Source of the DNA: Chiloscyllium plagiosum | Lineage: Eukaryota | Assembly: GCF_004010195.1 (NCBI RefSeq) | Contig: NC_057751.1 | Location: 18,526,999 to 18,559,347, forward strand | DNA length: 32,349 nucleotides | Direction of reading: 5' to 3' | Shown: in pieces, positions 6,608 to 32,349 of the stretch | How the letters are laid out: the number at the start of each line of letters is the position of its first letter | How positions within the stretch are numbered: the stretch's first letter is position 1 | The notes under the pieces: model-generated | Told to the model about the DNA's origin: nothing | What the model saw: the letters and a program-made list of their open reading frames with translations, nothing else | The model's database searches: none | Program-made: the position numbers and the translations under genes

Positions 6608-6703
6608 GAGTCAAAGTTAGAGTGGTGCTAGAAAACCACAGCAGGTCAGGCAGCATCTGATGAGCAGAAAAATCGACGTTTTGGGCAAACGCCCTTTATC
6701 AGG
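6608..6703 (-). mobile_element. Penelope-like terminus fragment with degenerate hammerhead
   Basis: Reverse complement reads cctgataaagggcgtttgcccaaaacgtcgattttt...gatgctgcctgacctgctgtg; both core boxes are mutated. Confidence 0.75.
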
Positions 6704-6741
6704 CTTTTTTTGTTTCTGACATCCGGGTTCTCAGTACTCTT

Positions 6742-6769
6742 GACGTTTCGGGCATAAGCCCTTCTTCAG
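6742..6769 (-). ncRNA. Minimal hammerhead ribozyme core
   Basis: Minus strand reads CTGAAGA A GGGC TTAT GCCC GAAA CGTC. Confidence 0.65.
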
Positions 6770-6772
6770 GAT

Positions 6773-6804
6773 TCCTGAAGAAGGGTTTATGCCCGAAACG
6801 TCGA
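6773..6804 (+). ncRNA. Minimal hammerhead ribozyme core
   Basis: CTGAAGA at 6775-6781, then A GGGT TTAT GCCC GAAA CGTC (ends 6802); stem II has one U-G wobble. Confidence 0.65.
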
Positions 6805-7785
6805 TTCTCCTGTTCCCTGGATGCTACCTGACCTGCTGCGCTTTTCCAGCAACACATTTTCAGCTCTGATCTCCAGCATCTGCAGACCTCACTTTCTCCT
6901 TCTCAGTACTCTTCTAAATCCAACAAGATTAATTCAGTTTAGAATACTGCATTGCAGCGAAATCACTGGAGCATTTTAACATCTTTCCCCTTCACGGGTT
7001 TTCTTTTTAACCTGTGGTAAGTCATCCTTATGTTTTTTTTTACTGAAATCTACCTTTGCTTTTCCATCCGAGGATTTCTCTTTTCTCCAATTTCAATCCG
7101 TCACAGATTTAAAATGATGCTTGAAATGAAACTTTGATTGATGAACCAATTCATAATCGTCAGCCATATCAGCTGCTAATGTTGTGGTTTTAACATGAGT
7201 TCTCATTGCCTCACTTAGCTTACCTTCTGTCTTCACCTCCATCATTTTAAGCCGTGTTTCCTGTCTGAGTACCAATGTCGGAAGTTCAAACTCTTGCTCC
7301 TTTTTCTTTTTGTTCTGCTATGGCCTTTCGTTTTTTTCCTCATTCTTCTGATTTTAATCGTAATTCAATCAGTTTCAATCTGTCTTCTCTTTCTATTTCC
7401 TTTGCATCTAACTCAAGCTGCTTCATTTTCAATTAAATTTTAGCAATCGCCAATGTTTCAGATGGCGTTTCCAGCAACTTTAAATGCTGAGCTGTTGCTT
7501 TATTAACTCCATTCTTTTTTTCGGAGACACAGTCAACTTCAACTATAACAAGCTTGCCAACTCCAGAAGTTTTTCCTTCTTCACCTTTTCTAAAGCCCCC
7601 GAAGTCACTTCTTCTCTCCTAGAAATTTCTTAGTGACTGAAAGAAACATTACTACACCAAGCACTGCTTAAACAAAACAAATACCATAACCGTAACAAAA
7701 TACATAAATACCTAACAGTTGCTGCCTTTAAGCCCAACATCCCTAATCCCAAATTGGGACTACAGAACAAATCACACAAATCCCT

Positions 7786-13330: not shown

Positions 13331-14067
13331 TTTAAAATGTTCACTATTTGCAAATAAGACAGAGGATATTTCTGAATCTGAGCGTGATTTAACGTCCATG
13401 TGTAGTGCTGAGGTCTTCCCAAATTCAAGGCGTCAGCTATCCCAGAGAATAGTCTGTGTCATGAGTTATTTTGCATGATGCACTGAATTTCCGAACTCTT
13501 GCTGGTCTGAAAGCCAGGATACGCATCCTTTCATTCTGCGTTGTCAGTGCTGCTGTGTGTACTTGGTTTTCCATACTCGAATAGTCAATTTGACTGGAAA
13601 ATCTTATGACTTTGAAAGCAAGCCCATTTTGTGAATCTCATATCAGTGTCTACAATTGTTGTGGCACTCTAAGCTGTGAAGGCTAGGCAACAGAAAACGG
13701 AAATTTTGTAAACCATATCTGTGTTAGGTGCTTCCTATTCTTTGTTTTGCCAATTCATTTTGCCTCGAATGTTGTCATCTGAAGGGCAATTCAAGCCAGT
13801 CAAAACAAACTATAAAACAGAGAAACTCAGCTGTTGCATACACCAGAAGTAACCCACTACTCATGTTGTACACGATATCTGTAATTTAAAAGAATACAAT
13901 GGATTCCTTCTGTGAAGGTTTTCTGCTGTGTTTCAATTTTTTAAAAAAATTTATGTGACACTGAACAACAATGTTTATGCTAAAATCCATCACTTACAGT
14001 CTGGTTCAGGTACAGAGAATACATTATCTGTAACTTCAAGTCTATCTTACTTTTCTATCTCTTACAG

Positions 14068-14954
14068 TTAATCTAGTGGCGATTGTATTTTTGTCTGGGG
14101 GTAAGTGTGGGCTTTCTACCTGCACCACTCGATATTTGGTGGCTATGGCAGCATCAGATCTTCTGTTCATTGTCTTCGACGTCATACTTGGTCAGTTCAG
14201 TTACTATTATTATCCACGGTGTTTCCTTGACATCACTCCTGTTTGTACTATTATTTATGCCCTGAATCGTTCATCTATTGACTGTTCTGTCTGGTTAACT
14301 GTCGCTTTCTCTTTTGATCGTTTTGTTGCCATTTGCATTCATCAAATGAAAACTAATTATTGCACTGAGAAAACGGCGATGAAAGTAGTAACAACAATAT
14401 GCATTTTCTTCGTTTTAAAGAATATTCCTATTTACTTTCGATTTGAGCCTAAAATGTTTATCAACAATGTTCCATGGTACTGTTCTAACAGGGAAAGTTA
14501 TCATTATCACCCTCAATGGGTTAGTTTTCGATATTTTGAAAAATTTCTAACACCAATTTTGCCATTTGCTTTCATTCTCTTGCTCAATGCTCTGACAGTG
14601 AGACACATCTTTGAGGCAATAAAGGTGCGTCAGGGAGTCAGGGATCAGAGAAAAACAGAGAATGATCCAGAGATAGAGAGCAGAAAGAACTCTGTGATTT
14701 TATTGTTTGCCATATCAGGCAGCTTCCTACTTCTCTGGTTGATGTATATTTTGTATTTCTTTGATGTCTCTTATCACTTGGATTATGCTGCTTATGATCT
14801 CTTTGAACAAGTCGCATATATGCTACGAAACTTAAGTTGTTGCACAAATGCATTTATTTATGTGGTGACACAAAATAATTTCAGACACCAGATAAAGAAT
14901 GCTGCAAAATATCCATTTGTAAAAATGTATCAGTTGGTGTTTAAATCCAAGTGA
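14068..14954 (+). CDS. Coding exon 2 of an orphan rhodopsin-like GPCR (GPR139/GPR142-like family expanded in cartilaginous fish); spliced product 311 aa
   Basis: Acceptor ttttctatctcttacAG ends at 14067, followed by an uninterrupted frame to TGA at 14952-14954. Motifs: YLVAMAASDLL (TM2), TPVC and ECL2 WYC cysteines, SVWLTVAFSFDRFVAIC (TM3, DRF), PFAFILLLN (TM5), SGSFLLLW (TM6), SCCTNAFIY plus helix 8 FR (TM7). 49+887=936 nt. Confidence 0.92.
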
Positions 14955-16486: not shown

Positions 16487-16830
16487 TTCCTGATGAACGG
16501 CTTTTGCTCGAAACATCGATCTTCCTGCTCCTCGGATGCTGCCTGGCCTGTTATGCTTTTCCAGCACCACTCTGATCTAAACTCTGGTTTCCAGCGTATG
16601 CAATCCTCACTTTTGCCAATTGATTTTAATCTTACTGCGAATCCTCTACCTTGAAGAAGTTCTCCTCCTCTCTCCACAAGAATCTCAGTGAGTCTCTCTC
16701 TCACTGCAATCCCCAGGTCATCTCCTTATTCAAAAATCCCTGAAGGGCTTTTGCCCAAAACGGCGATTTTCCTGCTCCTCGGATACTGCCTGACCTGCTG
16801 TGCTTTTCCAGCACCACTCTGATCTAAACT
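16487..16830 (+). mobile_element. Penelope-like partial tandem: terminus - short internal segment - terminus, two decayed hammerheads
   Basis: Direct repeats 16489-16583 and 16738-16830 (cctgctcctcggat.ctgcctg.cctg...cttttccagcaccactctgatctaaact). Cores CTGATGA...GAAACATC and CTGAAGGGC...CAAAACGGC. Confidence 0.8.
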
Positions 16831-16889
16831 CAAGAATCCTTCATGAGTTCAGCATGTCTACTGTTCTTCTTAAATTAGAAAAAAATTGA

Positions 16890-17056: not shown

Positions 17057-17819
17057 CTCCTCCCACATTCCTCTCCAGCTGTGATACACATAGACTCCTC
17101 TGATGAATCATCTGCATCACAATTCTACAAACCAACACCATCTCAAAGGACTCCTGAACAGCTTGGCTTTCACATGTTCCTTATTTGCCTGCACACTGAC
17201 TGTGGATTCACTTTTCCCAAAATGTGAGATGTACTAGTTCCAGGCTTTCTAGATGGCCCATAGTTACTCCAATTATGAAAACTGGAGCCCCAGTGCATGC
17301 AGGCGGTGACGTTTCATGCAGATAGGTTTTGCGCGAACACCTTGCCCATTTCAGTAACTTGCATTTCACAGACTGACCTTTTCTTTTTGATTTGAAAGTT
17401 ATTGAACAGCTCATCAGTTGCTCCAAAAAATTTCCTTCCATTGCTCCAGAATAAAAATATTTCATTCCCTCTTTCACACAAACTACGATTACTGAACCAT
17501 TCTCTGAGAGATAATTGCTTGAAGCTATGTGAATACCTTGTTGCATTTGTGCTGTACTAATTTCATTGCACAAAATGCAGGTTAAATGCACTTGACAAGC
17601 TTTGCTACCTGCCATTTCGAACTTGCAGAGGGAAATAGATAGACAACATTCTGATACTAAATCTGCACGCAGCCTGCCGTGGGAATGTTGAATACTTCAA
17701 ATAAAAACTTGCACTTTATACAATTTGTACTGTGCCTGTCTTGGGAAAGTCTGATCGTGAAAGTGCGGGTGGAGTTTTATTCTGTAGTCAAAAAATGTTG
17801 TACTTTGCAGGCAGTGCTA

Positions 17820-17894
17820 TGCCCGAAACGTCGATTCTCCGGATCCCTGGATGCTGCCTGACCTGCTGCACTGCTCCAGCAACACATTTTCAGC
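17820..17894 (+). mobile_element. 5'-truncated Penelope-like terminus fragment
   Basis: tgcccgaaacgtcgattctcc...ccctggatgctgcctgacctgctgc...ccagcaacacattttcagc is near-identical to 6790-6864. Confidence 0.8.
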
Positions 17895-18699
17895 TTATTA
17901 TCTAAGGAAATCTAACATGCTCACTCTATTCTTGGCCCCTGCATGATCCACCAGCGTGAATTTTCCAGCAGGACATAGCTTCTCTAACTTTCTAGGACAC
18001 AGTGCAGTAATAATATTCTGTGATCAGTCTAGCTATCTTACAATTCTTGGGTAAGTTACCTTTTATTAGTGTTGATTAACTGACCATTTCTTTGCCATGG
18101 GATAACCACACATGTCTTAGGATAATTATTGCCACCATGCCCCCCTCATCTGACAGAAAAATCATTCTTGCTGAGAACAAATGCATCTTATTCTCGAAAA
18201 CAGAACACACTAATATTATTGGCAACAGATGGATTTGCAACCTGTTGTTATCCATATAATGTCATTAGGCCTGAGGCATCATGAGTACAAGTTGATTAAC
18301 GGGGAAAACTCATGTCTGTATTTCATTGAAAGCTAGAATACAAATAAACTTTTGTAAACCAACAGTTGGTGAGAACATTAAAAAATGTAAATACACGAGA
18401 AAGCATCACATTCAGAATGCAGGTTTTATGAGCAAACCCAGCATTTATTTGTCATTCCTCATGGTACTCAAGGTGGTATCACTAGGCTACATTATTTTTT
18501 ATTGTAATGCATGCCAGAAAAAATACTCCAAAGGTAGTACAGTTGTGAAGGAATTCTGAGCTAGCTATATGGAGGGGAGAGTTTGAACAGGAAGCAACAG
18601 GAAGCAAAATACTTACACATTTCCTGAGGTTATATCACAGAAATCTACTGAAAGGTTAAGCCAATCTTCCAATCAAGCTTGCTCCATCATTCTCTCTCT

Positions 18700-18830: not shown

Positions 18831-21342
18831 CATAGAACATAGAACATTACAGCGCAGTGCTGGCCCTTCAGTACTCGATGTTGCACTGACCTGTGAAAAC
18901 AATCTGAAGCTGATCTATCCAACACTAATCCATTTTCATTTTGTATGCTTACCAAATGACCATTTAAATGCTACTAAAGTTGGCGAGTCTGCGACCGTTG
19001 CAGGCAGGGCTCTTACTACTGTCTGAGTGAAGAAACTACTTCTGACCTCTGTCCTATATCTATCACCCCTCAATATAAAGTTGTGTCCACTCGTGCTACC
19101 CATCACCATCCGAGGAACACGTCTCTCTCTGTCCACCCTGCCTAATCCTCAGATTATCTTCTCTGTCTCTATTAAGTCATCTCTCAATCTTTTTCTTCCC
19201 ATCGAAATCAGCCTCAAGTTCCTCAGCCTTTCTGTATCAGACATTCCCTCCATAACAAGTAACATCCTGGTAACTCTCCACTAGACCCTTTCCACATTCT
19301 TCCAATAATACGGTAACCACATTACTCCAAGTGCGGCAGTTTTGTACAGCTGCAAAATGACCTCATGGCTCCGAAACTCAACCATTCTACCAATAAAAGC
19401 TGACACACTGTGTATCTTCTTAACAACCCTATCCACCTGGGATCTATGTAAATGGACACTGACAGCTGTCTGCTTACCCACACTGCCAAGAATCTTATGA
19501 TTCACCCAATACTCTGTGTTCCTGTTACTCATTCCAAAGCAAATTACCTCAACCTTTTCTGCATTAAACTGAATTTCCCATTTCTCGGCCCAGCTCTGCA
19601 GCTTATGTGTGAACCTCTGTAACCTGCAACATCCTTCGGTGATGTCCACAACTCCACTGACCTCAGTGTCATGCACAAACTTCCTAACCAATCCCTCTAC
19701 GCCGTCATCCAGGATATTTATAAAAATGATATACAGCAACGCCTCCAAAACAGATTCCTGTGGGAAGTCACAAGCAACTGAACAGTGGAATGAGAAGTTT
19801 CCATCAACCATACCCTCCGTCTTCTTTCAGCTAGCTATTTTCTGATCAAAACCACTAAATCACCCTCAATCCCATACATCCACATTTTCTGCAATAGCCT
19901 ACCATGGGGAACCTTATCAAATGCTTTCTTGAAATCCATATACACTACATTAACCGGTTTACATGCATTCACCTGCTTGGTCGCCTTCTGAAAAACTTAA
20001 TAAGCTTTGTGAGGCACGACCTACACTTGACAAAACCGTGTTAACTATCCCTAATCAAATTATTCGTTTCCAGATTAATTATAAATCTTATCTCTTATAA
20101 TCCTTTCCCACACTTTACCCACAACTGAAGAAAGGTTCACTGGTCTATAATTACTAGGATTGTCCCCACGCCCCTTTATCATCAAGGGGATAACATTTGC
20201 TGTCCTCTAGTCTCCTGGCACTATTCCTATAGACAATTATGAAATAAAGATCAAAGTCAAAGATTCTGCAATTTTCTCTCTAGATTCCCAAAGAATCCAA
20301 AGATAAATAGCATCTGGCCCAAGGGACTTATCTATTTTTACACTCTCTAGAATTGCTAACACCTCCTCCTTATGACCCCCAATCCTATCCAGTCTAATGG
20401 CCTGTATCTCAGTATTATCCTCAACAATATTATAATTTTCCAGTGTGAACACTGACGAAAAATATTCATTCAGCGACTCTCCTATCTCCTCCCACTCCAC
20501 ACACCATTCCCCACTGTTGTGTTTGTCCCTATTCTTACTCTTGTTATTCTTTTATTCCTGACATACCTACAGAAAACTTCAGGGTTTTCTTTGATCCTGC
20601 CTGACGAAGACTTCTCCTGTCATCTCCTTGCTCTTCTCAACTCTGCAGTTAGATCCTTACTGGCTGATTATTGACACATGAGTGTCCTAACTGGGCCTTC
20701 ATGTCTCATCCTCACATAAGTCTCATTCTTTCTCTTGAGATTCAACTTCTTTAGTAAACCACATTTCCTTCACTTGACCATCTCCTCTCTGTCTGACAGG
20801 TTTATACTTATCAAGGACACTCAGTAACTGTTCCTTGAACAAGCTCCACATTTCAATTGTGCTAATCCACTGCAGCTTTCCCCATTCGATGCATCCTAAA
20901 TCTTGCCTAATCTTATCATAATTGTCTTTCCCCCAGCTTTAACTCCTGCTCTGTGGTACATACCTACTCTTTTCCATCGCTAAAATAAGTGTAATCAAAT
21001 TGTGGTAACAATCACCAAAGTGCTCACTTATGTCCAAACCTAACACCTCACCTGGTTCATTACCCACTGCCAAATCCAATGTGGTTTTGCCTCTTATTCA
21101 CCTATCGACAAACTGTGTCAGGAAACACTCCTGAACACATTGGACAAAAACTGACCCACCTAATGTACCACAAGCACAGCATTTCCAGTTAATATTTAGA
21201 AATTTAAAATCCTCCTTAAAAAAAAAATTACTGGCCAGTTTCGCTCCCATCCACAATCATCTTTGCAATCCTTTTCTCTACATCACTAGAAATTTTTGGA
21301 TGCCTTTAGAAATCTTCTAACAGGGTGATCTGTCCTTTCCTG
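18831..21342 (-). mobile_element. 5'-truncated CR1/HER1 LINE (ORF2 remnants plus 3' tail)
   Basis: (catagaa)n tail at 18831. ORF remnants 19281-19811 (FPQESVLEALL...KFVHDTEV) and 20237-20500 (KIDKSLGPDAIY) are homologous to the intact copy at 31278-32349. Confidence 0.92.
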
Positions 21343-26548: not shown

Positions 26549-26693
26549 CAGTCTCTCCAGTCTTTCTCTAGAACTCAAATCCTCCAGAATCAGTAACATC
26601 CATGAAACCTTTCCATGTTAACGACGCCCTTCCTGTAGGAGGGAGAGCAGAACAGTACACAGGACTACAAAAAGTAGCCTTATCAATGTCCTG

Positions 26694-26828
26694 GGAGCAG
26701 GATAATCGACATTTAGAACATAAGCTCTTCATCAGGATTCCTCGAAATGTCGATTCGCCTGATATCTGATCTGCTGTGCTTTTCCAGCACCATACTTTTC
26801 GACTCTGATCGGCTGTCCACACTTTCTC
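26694..26828. mobile_element. Older Penelope-like insertion with 5' inversion and decayed hammerheads
   Basis: Minus-strand core cctgatgaagagcttatgttctaaatgtcgat joined at ggattcc to a plus-strand terminus. Diverged TSD ccttatcaatgtcctg (26678-26693) / ccttgccaatgccctg (26829-26844), 13/16. Confidence 0.7.
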
Positions 26829-27634
26829 CCTTGCCAATGCCCTGTACAGCCGCAATGTGATGTCTCAACTCCTATACTCTGTACTTAGCAAAGAAAAAAG
26901 AATGCCAAATATCTTCTTCCCTGTCTATGTGTGACGCAAATTTCAAGGAACTATGTACCTGAACCCGTAAGTTTCTTTGTACAGCCAGACTCCCCAGGGC
27001 CTGTGTCCCCACTCCCCTGTGTCAGTCCTGCCAGTCCTTCCCAACATCTCGCACTTCTCTGCATGAAACTCCATCTGCCACTCTTCAGCTCATTATGCAT
27101 ACAGCTCCACCTACTCCTGAACACTGTGCCATTAAGTCCAAGGTGTCAAATAGAGGTGAATTTATTAATATTTTCCAAATTTTTTGAGAGGGTAAACCAT
27201 GAGGAAACCTTCCTTCAGGATCTGAGTCTCATACTATCAGTGTTTGAAACACATACCAAGGGCAAAACTGAGAGGAACGGGGTCGAAGTGCAGGCAAGAC
27301 AATAAATTCTTTTCAGGGTCAAAGGTCAGAATTGTGGAGCGGCCAGAAGCCTTGCAGTCTGGGTAGTTAGATAAACTTGACGATACAATGGATGTGCTCC
27401 GATGCCGCCAATGATGGTCATTGTGTTGTTTGTTTAAACTCCAGGCGTGAGGCTTTGGTGCGCCTCTCTTTGCTTTGGTGAACAGACTCGGACAGAGCAG
27501 CTTGACAACATGCATCACTTGCACTGGGCACATTAAGCTTGTTTTGGTGCCTTTTATATCCGATGCTACTTCTTGGCACACGGTTGCCAGTCGACTCCAG
27601 GCAAAAGCAGAGCAGTGTTCAATCAAGCACGGTA

Positions 27635-31139: not shown

Positions 31140-31276
31140 GCGGCATGGTGGCTCATGGCGCCAGGGACCTGGGTTCAATTCCCTCCTTGGCCAACTGCCT
31201 GCACGGAGTTTGCACATTCTCCCCGTGTCCGTGTGGGCTTCATCCGTGTGCTCCGGTTTCCTCTCACAATCCAAAG
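31140..31276 (+). mobile_element. HE1-type SINE 5' part, internally deleted, joined to CR1
   Basis: gcggcatggtggctca[deletion]tggcgccagggacctgggttcaattcc...ggtttcctctcacaatccaaaga. Confidence 0.85.
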
Positions 31277-32349
31277 AATGACTAGGGTAGGAATAGGTCC
31301 AGTCAAGGATAGTAGTGGGAAGTTGCGTGTGGAGGCTGAAGAGATTGGGGAGACACTGAAGGAATACTTTTCGTCAGTATTCAATCAGGAACAGGACATT
31401 GTCGTCGATGTGAATACTGAGTCACAATTAAGTAGAATGGATGGCTTTGAGGTATGTCGAGAAGGGGTGTTGGAAATCCTGGAAAAGGTGAAAATAGATA
31501 AGTCCCCTGGGCCTGATGGCATTTATCCTAGGATTCTCTGGGAAGCAAGGGAGGAGATTGCAGAACCATTGGCCTTGATTTTTATGTCCTCAGTGTCTAC
31601 AGGAATAGTGCCAGAAGACTGGAGGATAGCAAATGTGGTCCCCTTGTTCAAAAAGGGGAGTAGGGATAGCCCTAGTAACTATAGGCCGGTGAGTCTCACT
31701 TCTGTTGTGGGCAAAGTCTTAGAGAGAATTGTAAGGGATAGGATTTATGAACATCTGGATAGGAATAATGTGATCAAGGATAGTCAGCATGGTTTTGTGA
31801 AGGGCAAGTCGTGCCTCACAAACCTTATTGAATTCTTTGAAAAGGTGACGAAGGAGGTTGATGAGGGCAAAGCGGTAGATGTGGTATATATGGATTTTAG
31901 TAAGGCGTTTGATAAGGTTCCCCATGGTAGACCACTGCAAAAAATACGGAGGTATGGCATTGAGGATGAGTTGGAGGTTTGGATTAGGAATTGGCTGGAT
32001 GGAAGAAGACAGAGGGTAGTAGTTGATGGCAAAGTTTCTTCATGGAGTGCCGTCACTAGCGGTGTTCCGCAAGGATCTGTTTTGGGACCATTGCTGTTTG
32101 TCATTTTTATAAATGACCTGGAAGAGGGGTTAGAAGGTTGGGTGAGCAAGTTTGCGGATGATACGAAAGTCGGAGGAGTTGCTGACAGTGAGGAAGGATG
32201 TGGCAGGTTACAGCAGGATATAGAGAAGCTGCAGAGCTGGGCAGAAAGGTGGCAAATGGAATACAATGTAGCTAAGTGTGAGGTGACTCACTTTGGGAAG
32301 AATAACAAAAAGATGGGGTACTGGGCTAATGGTCGGATACTTGGTAGGG
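31273..32349 (+). mobile_element. Young 5'-truncated CR1/HER1 LINE with uninterrupted reverse-transcriptase frame running off the window
   Basis: From ATG at 31278 there are 357 codons without a stop: KSPGPDGIYPR, PEDWRIANVVPLFKKG, NYRPVSLTS, QHGF, YMDFSKAFDKVPH, GVPQGSVLGPLLF, KFADDTK. Absent from the ORF track, presumably because no stop is reached. The endonuclease domain is missing. Confidence 0.95.

Follow-up and report, generated by a model that had tools for sequence, protein, structure and literature searches.

A short head-to-head insertion resembling those of Penelope-like elements, with one arm ending at a predicted hammerhead cut site, in Chiloscyllium plagiosum

The insert and its surroundings

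The stretch of DNA analysed here (the window) comprises 32,349 nucleotides of the Chiloscyllium plagiosum genome. It holds an uninterrupted 306-aa stop-to-stop frame (14034-14954, plus strand) with a rhodopsin-family receptor domain (PF00001, E 5e-18) and, at 31203-32348 on the plus strand, a long reverse-transcriptase frame (PF00078, E 7e-37) that runs off the window. A decayed inverted relative of the latter, 75-77% alike, lies on the minus strand at 19811-20515. Both are presumably LINE-like.

The feature of interest is a 158-bp insert flanked by two exact copies of a 14-bp word, TTCTCAGTACTCTT (Table 1). A scan of both strands of the window found no third copy, the duplication is not extendable on its left or right side, and 14 matches at two given places would arise by chance with a probability of about 6e-9. 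The perfect target-site duplications described in an earlier sequence-only reading of the locus are thus borne out. The first 61 bp of the insert form a palindrome, in which the arms 6742-6771 and 6773-6802 are complementary at 29 of 30 positions around a single base, T6772; among the 23 inverted pairs listed in the window it is the sole near-perfect, close one of such length. The only mismatch between the arms is a private C-to-T change in the forward arm, where C is found in 90-96% of the repeat family, and the inverted arm carries the family-majority C opposite it.

The boundary of the inverted arm falls directly after GTC on the minus strand, with no ambiguous base: position 6741 of the plus strand is a T belonging to the target, where C would be expected from the repeat family. 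This agrees with the earlier statement that the minus-strand core stops exactly there and then runs into target DNA. Other copies were said to continue GTC-GATT, which is the case for six of the eight other arms of the repeat in the window; in the remaining two, the GTC itself is mutated. The insert is without a frame for a telomerase-like reverse transcriptase or a GIY-YIG endonuclease.

Table 1. Coordinates of the insert, its parts and related copies in the window.
Feature	Position	Strand	Remark
Places of the repeat group	103-232; 6703-6608; insert (2 arms); 16487-16613; 16742-16831; 17818-17895; 26689-26830 (2 arms)
Copy from this repeat group, more diverged	6608..6703	-	Outside the insert, 24 bp from the target site
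Target flank outside the left duplication	6720..6727	+	8 pairs, one G.U, with element 6816-6823 beyond the cut
Left 14-bp target-site duplication copy	6728..6741	+	3' end is the putative top-strand primer
Inverted 5' arm, 30 nt	6742..6771	-	Core 6769-6742, ending right after GTC; without the 3' strand of helix I
Pivot GGA-T-TCC	6771..6773	.	A6771 compatible with both arms
Forward 5'-truncated family end piece, 129 nt	6771..6899	+	Differs from the family majority in 3-5 letters (among the variant rows listed)
Minimal type I hammerhead core	6775..6802	+	Predicted cut after 6802; features as in the available text of PMC4209133
Optional 3' extension ("tail"), 34 nt	6866..6899	+	From arm ends in the window, judged by eye
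Right target-site duplication copy	6900..6913	+	Contig of the related species aligns from 6900 on
Second, decayed head-to-head copy	26689..26830	.	Same pivot; decayed 11-bp duplication (9/11)

The repeat family

The insert belongs to a repeat group represented in the window by nine arms at seven places. Arm ends were taken by eye, automatic local alignments overshooting into the flanks by about 6-21 nt. Judged in this way, three of the nine arms have 3' ends at about 6865-6866 and three at about 6899, 34 nt apart. In the partial tandem at 16487-16831, a second truncated copy comes after one that reads about 125 nt beyond the tail, into a decayed reading frame. A short, decayed open stretch of 34 aa within it (16630-16731) matched no Pfam family and none of 1.84 billion representatives. 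The insert has landed beside an older relative at 6608-6703. The second head-to-head copy, at 26689-26830, has an inverted arm that reaches 19 nt beyond GTC, is missing about 18 nt after the pivot, and carries an identical C-to-T change (AAATGTC) in both arms.

Four public sequencing runs were mapped on 6752-7150 at 85% likeness: one of raw RNA reads (X21) and three of contigs, of which X1 and X8 are from organism A and X9 from organism B, a related species. The RNA run yielded 2,508 reads, and X1, X8 and X9 yielded 68,363, 50,945 and 49,135 contigs, respectively, counts that are not copy numbers and that indicate a very abundant family in both species. A second, lower-copy repeat lies in the right flank at 7060-7101, where each of the three contig runs reaches a contig depth of about 10,000.

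The commonest right end of the family is 6898-6901 in all four runs (960 of the 2,508 reads of X21; 2141, 1299 and 2263 contigs in the contig runs), and the commonest left end, again in all four, is 6771, just upstream of the core (357, 418, 333 and 365). Since its own ends match both, the forward piece of the insert is a standard unit of the family. Among the rows listed, 6898-6901 is the only clear top right end, the tail start at about 6865-6866 not being one. Both the copy at 103-232 and the consensus of the loose ends at 6771 show further element sequence upstream of 6771. The depth of the left arm is 0.26-2.9% of that of the core, a tenfold spread between DNA runs, from which it follows that copies with exactly the same pivot are a recurring minority.

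Scans for more copies found 0 and 0 in viral contigs and 0 and 0 in genome contigs. Three metagenome loci (L001-L003, 501-537) were considered as copies and rejected, being alike only over a core of 26-37 nt and diverging at GTC or two bases later. They were left out of all counts, as the hammerhead core is all that they have in common with the family. A nearly identical core thus occurs in metagenome contigs with unrelated flanks and is common to distant repeat families. To judge from these sequences, conservation of the core alone can mimic a "breakpoint at GTC" between families.

The hammerhead cores

The motif CTGAWGA-AGGG-N5-GCCC-GAAAC-GTC is present exactly at 6775-6802 on the plus strand and at 6769-6742 on the minus strand. 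With up to three mismatches it has five matches in the window, against a mean of 0.00 in shuffled sequence. The plus core consists of CUGAAGA, an extra A, a 4-bp helix II, GAAA, the self-complementary ACGU and GUC, and the core features of a minimal type I hammerhead, including G10.1-C11.1 and the palindromic 15.2-16.2, are found in both arms. Helix I of the plus arm is weak (6771-6774 against 6803-6806, with three of four pairs in the family-majority sequence), and the minus-arm hammerhead is without the 3' strand of helix I. The computed energy of the inter-strand ACGU helix is -3.1 kcal/mol, and in the family-majority sequence the hammerhead fold comes to -3.1 kcal/mol vs -6.1 kcal/mol for the best fold.

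A transcript of the palindrome, from either strand, is predicted to form a hairpin with an energy between about -66 and -69 kcal/mol and a z of about -10 to -11. On these folding models the read-through hairpin locks up both cores, and the palindrome is best described as a dead hairpin, not as a working double ribozyme. The divergent cores of the sequence-only reading are therefore both there, with exact motifs, and its word "intact" applies to the core nucleotides only, given the missing strand of helix I in the minus motif and the hairpin that would lock both cores.

One variant, 6805 T>A, which accounts for 8-13% of the family in organism A but for 0.1% of it in organism B, completes a 4-bp helix I. 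It is possibly a subfamily with a better predicted ribozyme that has expanded in one lineage.

At gathering score the insert has no match in Rfam, none of whose models takes the minimal motif. Fourteen matches with E up to 10, mostly to microRNA hairpin models, were all below gathering and included no hammerhead; they were dismissed as hairpin look-alikes. One of the models, MIR6136, gives 48 bits with the palindrome at 6739-6805 (gathering 99), and the arms of its consensus likewise end in CCGAAAC-GUC-like letters. If transcribed, the predicted palindrome hairpins could be processed into small RNAs.

The orthologous site

Two contigs bear on the age of the insertion, both from the 24 of 163,501 pieces listed. 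Record 8, from run X1 of organism A, covers 6876-7150 and links the interior of the tail to the right flank. Record 24, from organism B, is 591 nt long with single-copy depth; its alignment begins precisely with the first base of the duplication, at 6900, and extends to 7150. The 58 letters that precede 6900 in it do not fit the insert; if they are left flank, they end 34 nt inside the neighbouring repeat, approximately where a contig break would be expected. The related species thus apparently has an empty site, as the contig join at 6900 suggests above the level of individual letters, which answers favourably the check on relatives proposed in the earlier reading. Run X8 has no contig on 6920-6961. 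The flanks of organism B differ from the window by 15 changes in 251 nt, and from this comparison the insertion probably postdates the divergence of the two species.

Do breakpoints cluster at the cut site?

The sequence-only reading proposed that the boundary of the inverted arm records the end of a self-cleaved RNA, and that breakpoints should then be in excess at GTC. Within the window, one of nine arms ends at GTC and none of the nine starts at 6803, the base that directly follows the predicted cut. The chance of an exact cut-site end is 0.015-0.033 if the window alone is considered. For 100 palindromes with 60-130 possible ends, the chance of at least one exact end rises to 0.54-0.81, and for 356 palindromes (assuming two per window in 178 windows) to 0.94-0.997. 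The idea of a self-cleaved end gains no support from these figures, since the other inverted arm in the window ends at +19 and one exact end is expected by chance in a scan of this size.

The mapped stretch was begun inside the left arm, at 6752, so that GTC-ended arms would appear as loose ends at 6802. No loose end at 6802/6803 is found among the 24 rows listed of 993 in the four runs, nor any joint at 6802/6803 among the 15 joint rows listed of 100. The table of places where reads begin or end in a pile has a single entry, 6758, and none at 6802/6803. RNA read depth is smooth over the cut (1164 at 6798 and 1222 at 6805), in a poly(A) single-cell library, X21, that is ill suited to detecting cleaved RNA ends. 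If the loose-end rows of X21 are ranked by count, any unlisted row has fewer than 139 reads, under 15% of the 960 reads at the tail end. At this coarse level there is no major pile among the loose-end rows listed, no begin or end pile and no step in RNA depth, contrary to the excess that had been proposed; the mapping is biased against short arms, as a GTC-ended arm gives only 30-51 letters, and a minor excess would be invisible.

A backward joint in run X8, with a depth of 282, departs from 6862 plus three letters, in effect from the tail start at 6865, and leads to 6803. It is one of 12 rows listed of 238 and the deepest among those 12; a similar backward joint goes to 6822. The joint to 6803 may reflect either a jump from a cleaved 5' end or slippage involving the GAT stretches at 6803-6805 and 6868-6870. 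Nothing found here shows the GTC junction to be more than a coincidence. The literature searched, which took in few of the subscription papers, held no report of Penelope junctions at a hammerhead cut.

How the insert may have formed

The insert is probably an ordinary short insertion made by the machinery of a Penelope-like retrotransposon, its inverted arm the product of ordinary internal priming or of fold-back. An endonuclease would nick both strands 14 nt apart, and the bottom-strand end would prime reverse transcription at the usual start of the family, the tail end at 6899/6900. From there 129 nt would be copied, through an uncut hammerhead, up to the usual stop at 6771 upstream of the core. 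The 30-nt mirror arm would come from the same event, with either the top-strand end priming on a second template or the first cDNA folding back on itself, and would be joined at the pivot, where one base fits both sides. Its outer end would then lie at a non-standard internal position that is by chance the cut site, possibly steered there by pairing of the flank with sequence beyond GTC. The pivots differ by a few letters between copies, and 14 of the 15 joint rows listed (of 100) skip from the pivot region to 6806-6878. Varying pivots together with forward pieces that start at many places fit two separately truncated cDNAs. An alternative is that palindromic copies arise by fold-back with later deletion.

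The pairing of the flank was noticed post hoc and lies mostly outside the 14-nt overhang. Besides the pairs listed in Table 1, target 6732-6734 pairs with element 6810-6812 in a register that ends at the junction. This register has 12 of 21 identities, and a fraction of 0.016 of 4,000 controls is as good. For the 22-nt top-strand flank, the best duplex of 106 registers, level with those next to it, is the one in which the 3' end of the flank meets the junction, and it is equalled by a fraction of 0.022 of 4000 control primers. The 14-nt duplication alone has no useful pairing with the template (rank 66 of 114, control fraction 0.62), and an anchored alignment score for the flank pairing has a control fraction of 0.34. 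Pairing of the flank with sequence beyond GTC hints that the element was still attached past GTC, as an uncut template, when the junction formed. Against the ordinary reading stand the exactness of the junction, the joint to 6803, the post hoc nature of the pairing and the want of a coding link to a Penelope protein.

A less ordinary possibility, which we consider unlikely, is that the hammerhead cut one template RNA and the GUC-ended 5' product stayed in the protein-RNA complex. The top-strand nick would in that case have primed reverse transcription at the GUC 3' end, giving an arm that stops exactly at the cut. The junction is indeed exact and unambiguous, and the polarity fits, as the arm corresponds to the 5' cleavage product with its 3' end abutting the target. 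The 14-nt overhang also offers no useful pairing beyond GTC, and one backward joint begins at 6803, but that joint may be GAT slippage and has a similar counterpart to 6822. The available text on the Poseidon element of Anolis reports a hammerhead that cleaves in vitro only with its protein and a faint band suggesting priming at the template 3' end; however, mutants of the ribozyme insert normally in the same system (PMC11167929). A precedent exists in another class, where R2 RNA is described as self-cleaving at the precise 5' junction (PMC3774820). On the other side are the lack of a pile at 6802/6803 among the rows listed for the four runs, the second inverted arm in the window with its end at +19, a weak helix I with a hammerhead fold well above the best fold in energy, and a flank that is complementary to sequence beyond the cut.

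A wider form of this idea is just as doubtful. Hammerheads of the Penelope type would cut in vivo, and a minority of insertions would use both cut ends, the GUC-ended 5' product as the template for top-strand priming, which would build the inverted arms, and the 5' end of the 3' product as the point of reverse-transcriptase run-off and of a jump to a tail-start template, as in the joint between 6865 and 6803.

It is much less probable that the arm was once longer and was trimmed to GTC afterwards, as could happen through a deletion in an unstable palindrome, or that it stems from a separate second insertion at the site. Unequal arms and internal deletions are common, as in the copy at 26689-26830 with its missing 18 nt or so and in the joints that skip to 6806-6878 (14 of the 15 listed). 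However, the perfect duplication abuts GAC, and a deletion would have needed to stop exactly at the border of element and target. Both trimming and a second insertion also sit poorly with the CUGAAGA variant common to the two arms, which differ in one of 30 letters.

Least credible of all is an artefact of assembly, or a distinct small mobile family with a fixed, GTC-ended palindromic left end: palindromes can be library chimeras, the depth share of the left arm varies tenfold between DNA runs and no contig crosses the left junction (the mapped stretch having begun at 6752), but a chimera would account neither for the perfect duplication nor for the private mismatch that sets the arms apart, the X1 contig links the tail to a right flank where the related species is without it, and pivots that vary by a few letters fit inversions built anew at each insertion.

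The anatomy of the insertion is thus real and its kind ordinary, and the junction at the cut site is a coincidence unless a genome-wide count says otherwise. Taken by itself, the insert adds another young case to an insertion pattern already in the literature. What the hammerhead does in Penelope-like elements is described as unclear in the available text of one study (PMC8557442). If cut-site junctions proved to be in excess, this question would become a simple count on an existing genome, and if hammerheads do cut in vivo and a minority of insertions use the cut ends, histograms of junctions in so abundant a family would allow ribozyme activity in the Penelope cycle to be read from a genome for the first time. 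The value lies in a possible excess of junctions and not in the single junction.

Comparison with known systems

The comparisons below draw on the available portions of the papers cited. Judged by its sequence, the insert bears the structural marks of a truncated Penelope-like insertion; no link to a protein was obtained. Its tail, truncation, head-to-head arms and 14-bp duplication uphold the earlier assignment to a Penelope-type end that bears a minimal hammerhead and shows a 5' inversion and a true target-site duplication. A DNA transposon of the MITE kind was rejected, as it needs inverted repeats at both termini and the only one here is confined to 61 of the 158 bp, at the start of the insert.

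Penelope-like elements typically show inverted, 5'-truncated copies and a tail of 30-40 bp on one side (Craig et al. 2021, PMC8557442), and in rotifer elements head-to-head palindromic junctions with duplications of 8-10 bp have been attributed to self-priming (Arkhipova et al. 2013, PMC3846280). Like endonuclease-bearing Penelope-like insertions, the insert has a 5' truncation, a head-to-head arm and a palindromic junction (PMC8557442, PMC3846280). It further resembles Penelope-like insertions in the optional tail, the variable length of the duplication (14 bp here and 11 bp, decayed, in the second copy) and the partial tandem at 16487-16831. Unlike the usual insertions, however, it is very short, at 158 bp, with no reading frame, and its inverted arm stops 97 nt before the end of the tail, about 63 nt before the tail start, whereas arms usually end at one or the other of these.

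The minimal hammerheads of metazoan Penelope-like elements are mostly solo, with dual motifs on opposite strands 100-700 bp apart (Cervera and De la Pena 2014, PMC4209133). Those of the insert share the CUGANGA box, the extra base before helix II, G10.1-C11.1, GAAA, the palindromic 15.2-16.2 and the lack of a loop 3. They differ in having a helix II of 4 bp and, in the minus motif, in lacking half of helix I. In contrast to the published dual motifs, the two motifs here are 5 bp apart and mutually complementary, and a read-through transcript is predicted to leave neither of them able to adopt a ribozyme fold.

In vitro work on the Poseidon element of Anolis carolinensis found cutting and extension of both target strands (Frangieh et al. 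2024, PMC11167929). According to the available text, reverse transcription starts internally, downstream of the hammerhead, and two internal start sites define the tail. Dead-ribozyme mutants insert normally, making cleavage dispensable, and RNA-seq gave no reads with an end at the cut (PMC11167929). The present family is similar in that two putative internal start sites define a tail downstream of the hammerhead, both target strands would be cut and extended, and copies would run through an uncut ribozyme (PMC11167929). It differs in that one arm does end at the cut, where none was found for Poseidon, and in that the searches tied no protein to the family.

A precedent for a ribozyme cut that sets an insertion junction is the HDV-like ribozyme of R2 (PMC3774820; review PMC6765202). 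However, in R2 the cut gives the template its 5' end, as is the rule in full-length copies, whereas here it would give a template its 3' end and be an exception at most. The insert is also like the non-LTR retrozymes (bioRxiv 10.64898/2026.07.22.740005), which are non-coding, carry a type I hammerhead and are derived from Penelope-like ends. It was rejected as a member, since in the available text these are defined by head-to-tail tandems with a hammerhead in each unit, and the insert is single and head-to-head. The architecture of the insert is already published.
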